From: Patescibacteria group bacterium
GTDB taxonomy: Bacteria > Patescibacteriota > Patescibacteriia > PEXW01
Assembly (NCBI GenBank): GCA_041665345.1
Contig: JBAYJA010000003.1
Coordinates: forward strand, 103,202 to 167,201
Reading direction: 5' to 3'
DNA length: 64,000 nt
Positions within the stretch are counted from its first letter, which is position 1. The number at the start of each line of letters is the position of its first letter. Of the stretch, positions 35,856-36,100 are shown piece after piece. Under the pieces are notes generated by a model. That model saw only the letters and a list, made by a program, of their open reading frames with translations, was not told where the DNA came from and ran no database searches. The position numbers and the translations under genes are program-made.

Positions 35856-36100
35856 GGGCGCGTAGCTCAGTTGGTAGAGCGGGTGTCTTACCCGCCTCCC
35901 GGAGTACGGCGTAGAGTAGCACATTCTTATATTCCTTGATTGTTGAAGCGCGCCTAGCTCAACTGGTTAGAGCAGTCGTCTTATACACGACCGGTTCCTG
36001 GTTCGAGTCCAGGGGCGCGCACCAACAGTTTTGGAGTACAGATCCGTACGGCGGGCAGGTACACACCTGGTCCTAGGTTCGAGTCCTAGCGCGCCCACCA
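35856..36100 (+). tRNA. Split or intron-containing tRNA (Val-like, anticodon probably UAC): 5' half 35856..35891 and 3' half 36061..36100, separated by about 170 nt that include a complete tRNA(UAU)
   Basis: 5' gggcgcg-ta-gctc-agttggta-gagc-g-ggtgt-ctta; 3' ac-acacc-tggtc-ctagg-ttcgagt-cctag-cgcgccc-a-cca; acceptor 7/7 and anticodon stem 5/5 complementary between the halves; intron-flank helices cccgcc/ggcggg and gtacgg/ccgtac. Confidence 0.55.
35948..36024 (+). tRNA. tRNA with anticodon UAU (Ile2-type), nested between the two halves of the split tRNA
   Basis: gcgcgcc-ta-gctc-aactggtta-gagc-a-gtcgt-cttatac-acgac-cggtt-cctgg-ttcgagt-ccagg-ggcgcgc-a-cca; perfect cloverleaf. Confidence 0.85.

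Follow-up and report, generated by a model that had tools for sequence, protein, structure and literature searches.

A tRNA-Ile(UAU) gene nested in the anticodon of its own isoacceptor looks like an undescribed mode of tRNA gene replacement in Patescibacteria

In tRNA-dependent lysogeny, actinobacteriophages integrate into and destroy a host tRNA gene and bring a gene for the same isoacceptor with them (PMC10865867). Group I introns interrupt tRNA anticodon loops in Patescibacteria, including at position 35/36 (PMC13011429; 10.1101/2020.01.27.920355), and the intervening sequences of bacterial 23S rRNA, as in Coxiella, are patchily distributed and removed as RNA by host RNases, not spliced (PMC4990558). 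Here we describe a tRNA-Ile(UAU) gene in a 64-kb stretch of a Patescibacteria genome (GenBank assembly GCA_041665345.1, contig JBAYJA010000003.1, positions 103,202 to 167,201; hereafter the window) whose anticodon is split by a 169-bp cassette carrying a complete second tRNA-Ile(UAU). We call the interrupted gene the outer tRNA and the complete gene within the cassette the inner tRNA. We searched the full-text literature and found no account of a tRNA gene lying within the anticodon loop of a gene for the same isoacceptor. The arrangement looks like an undescribed mode of tRNA gene replacement rather than an intron, because related genomes show the event repeatedly, leaving nested relics. We consider it probable that this is a site-specific disrupt-and-replace cassette, in which the inner tRNA works from the old promoter and the outer halves are what is left of a copy disabled very recently.

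The outer tRNA lies on the + strand as two halves that together restore a complete gene. Its 5' half (35856..35890, +) holds tRNA positions 1-35 and reads GGGCGCG TA GCTC AGTTGGTA GAGC G GGTGT CTTA; its 3' half (36060..36100, +) holds positions 36-76 and reads TAC ACACC TGGTC CTAGG TTCGAGT CCTAG CGCGCCC A CCA. Both the 7-bp acceptor stem and the 5-bp anticodon stem formed between the halves are perfectly complementary. The 5' half equals the intact genes of related loci L008, L009, L011 and L030-L040 at 35/35 positions, and the 3' half equals the relatives' intact genes at 41/41. Joined as CTTA/TAC (a slash marks the break), the halves match the uninterrupted tRNA-Ile(UAU) of the syntenic locus at 76/76 positions in 14 related loci. 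We judge this match not to be chance, because the full 76/76 agreement holds against uninterrupted genes in 14 other loci; the exact uninterrupted 76-mer is present in those 14 and absent from the window. A scan for the outer D-arm and anticodon-stem string, with one representative genome per species, returned seven uninterrupted tRNAs, all seven Ile(UAU), and three of them (L008, L009 and L011) are exactly the joined halves. The interrupted gene is, by its match to uninterrupted genes of that type, a tRNA-Ile(UAU).

The same comparison fixes the junction. Taken by itself, the window is compatible with Thr(GGU), Thr(UGU), Ile(UAU) or Val(UAC), with an insert of 169 nucleotides (nt) regardless, and a reading made from these letters alone (the sequence-only reading) had favoured anticodon UAC (Val) while calling the junction ambiguous. 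Val(UAC), Thr(UGU) and Thr(GGU) fall away because the intact homologues are all Ile(UAU), including the seven that share the D-arm and anticodon stem, and equal the halves joined CTTA/TAC. Only one split of both flanks yields CTTATAC, and for that reason the insert is taken as 35891-36059; on this evidence the break is unambiguous, at 35890/35891 and 36059/36060, between anticodon bases 35 and 36. Every feature that the sequence-only reading named was found in place, and its two halves with their complementary stems hold, once the break and coordinates are shifted to these positions and the insert set at 169 nt. The halves sum exactly to the 76-nt intact gene, leaving neither target-site duplication nor loss. 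A TA or TAC target duplication, or a shared recombination core, would require the target to have had a 5-nt anticodon loop, and the intact genes contradict this. ARAGORN in intron mode did not call the outer gene. For annotation, this means that tRNA finders miss the outer gene and that its halves are prone to a tRNA-Val call, which affects tRNA-based completeness estimates for metagenome-assembled genomes (MAGs) of Patescibacteria.

Empty sites exist at the same place in close relatives. The gene order is conserved: S1, FtsH, a 344-residue membrane protein, the tRNA-Ile(UAU) slot, PIG-L in some genomes, a PolyA_pol-like gene, RluD and L19. Three tRNA-Ile(UAU) alleles fill this slot across genomes: B stands alone in L008, L009, L011 and L030-L040, A1 alone in L001, and A2 alone in L004/5, L041 and L042. 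In the window the outer tRNA is allele B and the inner tRNA allele A2. The closest relatives, L009 and L030 (about 85% DNA identity; FtsH 96-97% identical in amino acids), carry an uninterrupted B gene, which answers the comparison of orthologous loci that the sequence-only reading had proposed. A putative -10 element of the tRNA-Ile unit, the CGTAGTAT box (35835..35842, +), ends 13 nt upstream of the outer 5' end, and the same box (CCCGTAGTATAGCGCG) immediately precedes tRNA-Ile in L001, L002, L040, L041 and L042. We only infer a promoter function for the box, since a consensus promoter scan found nothing.

The cassette (35891..36059, +) consists of conserved ends, variable spacers and a tRNA. 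Its boundaries between anticodon nucleotides 35 and 36 follow from the uninterrupted gene, and L025 and L002 carry cassettes with the same ends. These ends, CCCGCCTCCC... and ...GGCGGGCAGG, are conserved and mutually complementary. The left end, CCCGCCTCCCGGAGTACGG (35891..35909, +), is kept at 19/19 positions in L025, L002 and L003, and its first 10 nt match CCCGCCTGCC, the left end of the A1 cassettes in L046 and L047. A 38-nt leader spacer follows (35910..35947, +), with a small hairpin and then the 5' side of the stalk formed with the trailer. The inner tRNA-Ile(UAU) occupies 35948..36024 (+), 77 nt with its CCA, and was already reported as a complete tRNA(UAU) in the sequence-only reading; ARAGORN and Rfam agree (RF00005, 65.9 bits). 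Its A2 features, acceptor GCGCGCC and anticodon stem GTCGT, differ from the outer allele, and it agrees at 77/77 positions with L002's inner tRNA and with the gene that stands alone in L041. The 18-nt trailer spacer (36025..36042, +) supplies the 3' strand of the stalk. The right end, TCCGTACGGCGGGCAGG (36043..36059, +), is kept at 17/17 positions in L025 and 14/17 in L002; its last 10 nt form an imperfect inverted repeat of the left end, and GGCGGGCAGG also terminates the A1 cassette of L047 and L025. CCCGCCT(C/G)CC and GGCGGGCAGG pair at 8-9 of 10 positions. Both end pairings noted earlier are present, CCCGCC (35891-96) with GGCGGG (36050-55) and GTACGG (35904-09) with CCGTAC (36044-49). The ends are kept at 19/19 and 17/17 while the spacers are unalignable. 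With 77 of 169 nt given to the tRNA, the non-tRNA part is 92 nt; the insert has no open reading frame (ORF) and no promoter of its own, and the tRNA is its single gene.

Folding the region as RNA gives a rod (z = -4.3 to -4.6 relative to shuffled sequences). The rod begins at the outer anticodon stem, continues with the end helix, carries a small hairpin on its side, and then runs through the leader/trailer stalk to the inner cloverleaf at its tip. In both the minimum free energy (MFE) and the centroid fold, the two junctions lie directly opposite each other in a 4-bp helix, UA/CC over GG/UA, and the sole 3-nt bulge (GGA) falls inside the insert, about 10 nt past the left junction. The helix-bulge-helix-like arrangement suggested earlier gives way to a near-continuous rod whose break points face each other. 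MFE folds of all three cassettes show the same hairpin-plus-stalk layout despite their different sequences; a hairpin about 20 nt from the left end is present, and its sequence is not conserved.

Several other origins for cassette parts found no support. The leader and trailer do not register as relics of older tRNA halves (all p>0.2). The window has no excess of CCCGC...GCGGG palindromes (5, with 3.1 expected), and a CCCGCC...GGCGGG hairpin at 46029-46051 resembles an ordinary terminator. As to a phage or viral source, the left end has no viral match, and a phage database gives only generic tRNA similarity.

Nested tRNA-Ile(UAU) genes recur in related genomes, in different states of preservation. 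The sample covers nine to ten independent genomes and holds two complete nests, the window and L025. Both halves are intact in the window (A2 in B) and in L025 (A2 in A1), and the L025 cassette ends match those of the window at 19/19 positions on the left and 17/17 on the right. L002/L003 hold A2 within an A1-like outer gene whose 5' half lacks CTAGCTC, with loss of the D stem, and whose 3' half is deleted; in L002 the missing half was not found within 2 kb. L043-45 hold A1 behind a B-type relic of the 5' half only (...GGTGT CTTA/CCCACC TACCTTGC), and L046 holds A1 behind a diverged, A2-like 5' half (...CGTA/CCCGCC TGCCTTGC). In L047 an A1-like inner tRNA sits within a nearly complete B gene whose anticodon stem is broken (GGCGC vs ACACC) and whose D loop and T loop carry 50-nt GC-rich hairpin inserts; its cassette runs CCCGCCTGCC, 8 nt, the A1-like tRNA, 4 nt and GGCGGGCAGG, at the same junction. 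L025 is a triple nest, a B relic around a split A1 around an intact A2, because its flanks align with the L047 outer relic. The 5' relics reach z = 6.7 to 21 in local alignment against shuffles, and the same approach found no hidden relics around the un-nested genes of L001, L008, L009, L011, L030 and L040-42.

The insertion point is constant across these nests. The junction (C)TTA/CCCRCC occurs in four outer/inner pairings (A2 in B, A2 in A1, A1 in B and A1 in A2-like), always 3' of ...(C)TTA, or of CGTA in the decayed L046, and relatives show exact empty sites. All six nested or relic loci have their inner and outer genes in the same direction, with the 5' relic placed after the upstream box and before the presumed working tRNA. 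The outer halves are purely of recipient type right up to the junction. Preservation grades from intact (window, L025) through light damage (L047) to fragments (L002, L043, L046 and the outer layer of L025), and across this series only the inner tRNA stays intact. Neutral decay after repeated insertions would produce such a series.

The window insertion appears to be recent. FtsH differs between the window and L030 at 45% of four-fold degenerate sites (Jukes-Cantor 0.70), and the outer halves show 0 differences in 76 nt from the relatives' intact gene. If the halves are neutral, an insertion one tenth as old as the window-L030 divergence would leave them unchanged with P = 0.07. Because there are 0/76 changes despite 0.45 divergence per four-fold site, neutral halves would put the insertion within about the last tenth of that divergence; if they are not neutral, they are still under constraint.

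The slot also varies in allele, orientation and neighbouring genes. L040 (B) differs in allele from L041 and L042 (A2) behind the same upstream sequence, ...CCCGTAGTATAGCGCG, in genomes that are 79-84% identical in DNA; these are clean swaps of the tRNA body alone. Nested or not, tRNA-Ile(UAU) occurs in either orientation between the same flanking genes: it is inverted relative to its neighbours in L009, L004/5, L025 and L047, and has the opposite orientation in the window, L001, L002, L008, L011, L030 and L040-42. L009 and L030 share 91% DNA identity yet differ in tRNA-Ile orientation. The product of the window's PIG-L deacetylase gene (35075-35806, - strand) is 100% identical to a protein annotated "Patescibacteria group bacterium". 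The gene is present in the window and the L001/L025 group and absent from L008, L009, L011 and L030, and gene content at this tRNA-adjacent spot varies along with the tRNA. In L031-L038 a 225-residue ORF with a faint, homing-endonuclease-like match to Pfam LAGLIDADG_3 (about 6027-6704 in L031) adjoins L19, about 2 kb from an uninterrupted B-type tRNA-Ile; the window has no counterpart. L009, L010 and L012 are MAG contigs titled "uncultured Gammaproteobacteria", and for L009, which is syntenic with the window at 85% DNA identity with FtsH 97% identical in amino acids, a taxonomic mislabel or binning error is probable.

These observations fit a cassette that provides the function it destroys, and the insertion into a tRNA gene that the sequence-only reading had listed as its third option is the one the evidence supports. 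On arrival the cassette would inactivate the outer gene. Transcription would then start at the resident promoter and read through the cassette, whose RNA would form a rod with the inner tRNA at its tip, the leader/trailer stalk and end helix letting that tRNA fold independently. RNase P and 3' trimming, perhaps with RNase III acting at the end helix, would free the inner tRNA, which would assume AUA decoding; the outer halves would not be rejoined and would be left to decay. The insertion would be viable, and the cassette thereafter indispensable, because the cassette supplies exactly the function destroyed. AUA codons are in use, at 16 of 410 Ile codons in 15 window genes. All relatives examined have a tRNA-Ile with a genomic UAU anticodon rather than a CAU tRNA with TilS, although TilS itself was not searched for. 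The window also encodes the queuosine genes QueA and TGT, with TrmD, at 21224-24501 (- strand) and 62127-62819 (+ strand).

The cassette appears to behave as a mobile element, because the same ends enter the same phosphodiester bond in different alleles and several lineages, with empty sites and decaying relics alongside. Insertion would proceed by cutting and joining without duplication, in the loop of a hairpin-forming target. A break in the anticodon loop may be followed by copying of the cassette out of a nested donor allele, through homing-like synthesis-dependent repair, or the cassette may move by single-strand transposition of the IS200/IS605 type. Both routes fit the absence of duplication, the TTA motif 5' of the insertion, the hairpin-loop target, the exact empty sites and the recipient-type exons.

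Several points weigh against the disrupt-and-replace reading. A Pfam scan found no insertion enzyme (nuclease, transposase, integrase, reverse transcriptase or ligase) in the cassette or among the 40 window ORFs scanned. The cassette fits no known transposition signature: its inverted ends suggest a DDE-type miniature inverted-repeat transposable element (MITE), but there is no target duplication, and cassette and target share no common core of the kind integrases require. The inner tRNA has the same anticodon stem-loop as some targets (A1), and a nuclease recognising the A1 anticodon site would therefore also cut the cassette's own cargo. The perfect halves in both complete nests are equally expected of a functional, spliced outer gene. 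Neither cassette end has a second copy in the 64-kb window, and among 241 million metagenome records the left end has one true match (L025); the cassette is very rare for a mobile element and always occupies one locus.

An unlikely alternative dispenses with dedicated mobility. Here rare accidental insertions would have been followed by the movement of nested alleles through natural transformation and homologous or microhomology-mediated recombination; the ends would be only a processing stem for the inner pre-tRNA, which works while the outer gene is dead, as under disrupt-and-replace. In its favour, the locus is a recombination hot spot, where B, A1 and A2 replace one another cleanly downstream of a shared upstream sequence; in addition, L009, L004/5, L025 and L047 have the gene inverted, and the presence of PIG-L varies among relatives. 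Each genome has a single cassette, always at the tRNA-Ile(UAU) locus, with no transposase or nuclease nearby, and L002 has conserved ends although its truncated right terminus would prevent movement. Accidents, however, would not strike 35/36 repeatedly, and four outer/inner pairings share an identical phosphodiester junction. Nor would homologous recombination with homeologous arms of about 35-40 nt leave pure recipient halves.

The persistence of flawless halves in the window and L025 is also what a new type of tRNA intron would predict, although we regard this account as doubtful. The rod would be excised and the outer halves ligated by protein or RNA catalysis, one transcript giving an outer tRNA-Ile(UAU) by splicing and an inner one once RNase P and 3' processing had acted on the freed intron; reverse splicing or homing would carry the element to new alleles, and one of the redundant genes would later be lost. 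Such an intron would account for 0/76 changes in the window against 0.45 synonymous divergence from relatives, for ends strictly kept while spacers drift, as for splicing signals, and for a hairpin-plus-stalk fold maintained with differing sequences. Position 35/36 is the typical site of Patescibacteria tRNA group I introns (PMC13011429), the last base of the insert is G, and the uninterrupted alleles of close relatives resemble precise intron loss. Against this, the insert lacks the catalytic core of any Rfam intron or ribozyme family and has only 92 nt of non-tRNA sequence, the final base of the 5' exon is A, not U, and the break points face each other within a helix, with no bulge-helix-bulge (BHB) motif. 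The account would call for chemistry not known in bacteria. Protein-dependent tRNA splicing is not known in bacteria (PMC13011429), the two tRNAs would be functionally redundant, and the outer gene is plainly dead in L002, L043, L046 and L047, with the ends conserved in L002 nonetheless. A new class of bacterial tRNA intron, with no group I or II core and no BHB, carrying a tRNA and able to spread, through reverse splicing or homing, to any tRNA-Ile(UAU) anticodon loop, is similarly improbable. One unverified lead is that the CCC following the 5' exon could let the anticodon stem and its tail mimic an acceptor stem with CCA, in which case RNase P could cut at G/U36.

It is very improbable that RNase III removes the rod without religation, leaving an outer tRNA that functions in two pieces held by base pairing. 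From anticodon nucleases it is established that a nick within the anticodon abolishes decoding, and this counts against such an account, as does the decay of outer genes in relatives. In its favour, the intervening sequences of rRNA likewise turn a hairpin loop into an extended helix whose ends are complementary, and they occur sporadically among relatives (PMC4990558). Scarcely credible is an assembly chimera of two strains with different tRNA-Ile alleles, since although the window is a MAG contig and tRNA alleles do differ between related strains, a chimera would give hybrid tRNAs rather than a nested one, and misassembly is excluded in practice because the nest, with its 92 nt of non-tRNA sequence and specific ends, recurs in independent assemblies from other samples (L025; L002/L003, with two assemblers; L047).

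If the disrupt-and-replace reading holds, the locus illustrates an undescribed-looking turnover of an essential, single-copy tRNA gene, in which a cassette repeatedly enters the anticodon of its own isoacceptor, borrows the promoter and replaces the gene. It would follow the logic of a cleave-and-rescue element, occurring naturally and 100-170 bp in size. Should the outer gene instead be spliced, it would give bacteria a first tRNA intron outside groups I and II. With filled and empty alleles and a range of decay states in several genomes, the splicing question is directly testable.

Other elements of the window stand apart from the cassette. An element of about 90 nt, ...AGC(C/T)CGCTTTACCC...(variable hairpin)...GGGGACCCC(C)GAAA, occurs 3' of tRNA-Ile at about 36160-36255 (+) and between tRNA-Cys and tRNA-Gly at about 7165-7225 (- strand). 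A further copy lies 3' of tRNA-Ile in L042, and L009 and L030 lack the element. Rfam gives no match to it, and it could be a tRNA trailer, a terminator or a small RNA peculiar to the lineage. Short GC-rich palindromes, GTCCCGC...GCGGGAC and TCCCGC...GCGGGA, adjoin tRNA genes at 36128-36145 and 7183-7197. In L047, palindromes of the same type at 186-235 and 377-426 lie exactly in the D loop and T loop of the decaying outer tRNA, which suggests that hairpin loops are preferred landing sites; across the window as a whole the family shows no enrichment. A 1028-residue protein encoded at 29255-32341 (- strand) carries a Major Vault Protein shoulder domain (PF11978, E = 7e-15) and a vault repeat (PF17795), which is unusual for a bacterium and more so for a reduced Patescibacteria genome.

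Set beside known systems, the cassette appears to show the defining features of no family with which we compared it. As in tRNA-dependent lysogeny, a host tRNA gene is disrupted and not rebuilt, and the outer and inner genes are both Ile(UAU). That system involves a whole prophage, a tyrosine integrase and an attP/attB common core of about 10 bp (PMC10865867). The cassette, by contrast, is 169 bp long, sits in the anticodon, would be co-transcribed from the promoter of the gene it breaks and stacks recursively. No integrase is encoded by the 40 window ORFs scanned, and the junction strings share only TA or TAC, which would imply a 5-nt target loop.

With the group I introns of Patescibacteria tRNAs the cassette shares the phylum, the loop, the 35/36 position, the absence of duplication, a final G and a sporadic distribution. 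Unlike them, it has no core, its -1 base is A rather than U, its 169 nt include a 77-nt tRNA, and its outer gene decays in relatives. By the group I boundary rule (U at -1, G last), A35 fails and G36059 fits. The intron option of the sequence-only reading, in its known forms, finds no footing: Rfam scans of the whole window at the gathering threshold and of 35700-36450 at E<=10 found only the inner tRNA, with no RF00028 core (P3-P9) for group I and no RF00029 match for group II, and no ribozyme family matched at E<=10 within 35700-36450. The 169-nt insert also has no ORF, whereas group II introns usually encode a reverse transcriptase.

Archaeal BHB, split and permuted tRNAs offer a non-self-splicing insert with pairing ends (PMC4090602, PMC4390854). 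The loop inserts of L047 recall multi-intron archaeal tRNAs, but the anticodon stem of that gene is already broken. Unlike archaeal BHB introns, the cassette lies in a bacterial genome, with its halves in cis and without two 3-nt bulges flanking a 4-bp helix, and a Pfam scan found no EndA or ligase among the 40 window ORFs that it covered. The split tRNA of the Nanoarchaeum type that the sequence-only reading had entertained does not suit halves that lie in cis, 169 nt apart on one strand, behind one conserved, promoter-like upstream box.

Like the intervening sequences of 23S rRNA, the cassette is a selfish-looking insert that turns a terminal loop into a long stem, has ends that complement each other and is patchy in close relatives. 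rRNA tolerates fragmentation, whereas an anticodon loop should not, and the cassette brings a replacement gene. Non-autonomous palindromic elements include MITEs, IS200/IS605-derived palindrome-associated transposable elements (PATEs) and REPINs, and the cassette is like them in being small and without an ORF, with complementary ends and a rod-like fold. It has the terminal inverted repeats of a DDE-type MITE, without the target duplication or the multiple copies. With IS200/IS605 PATEs it shares the lack of duplication, an A/T-rich motif (TTA) 5' of the insertion, a hairpin-loop target and precise empty sites; unlike them, its ends are inverted repeats of each other, and it has one copy per genome, one target and a tRNA cargo. 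No TnpA or RAYT was seen in the window ORFs scanned. In function the cassette comes closest to tRNA-dependent lysogeny and in position to the 35/36 group I introns of Patescibacteria; its form recalls 23S rRNA intervening sequences and small non-autonomous palindromic elements.

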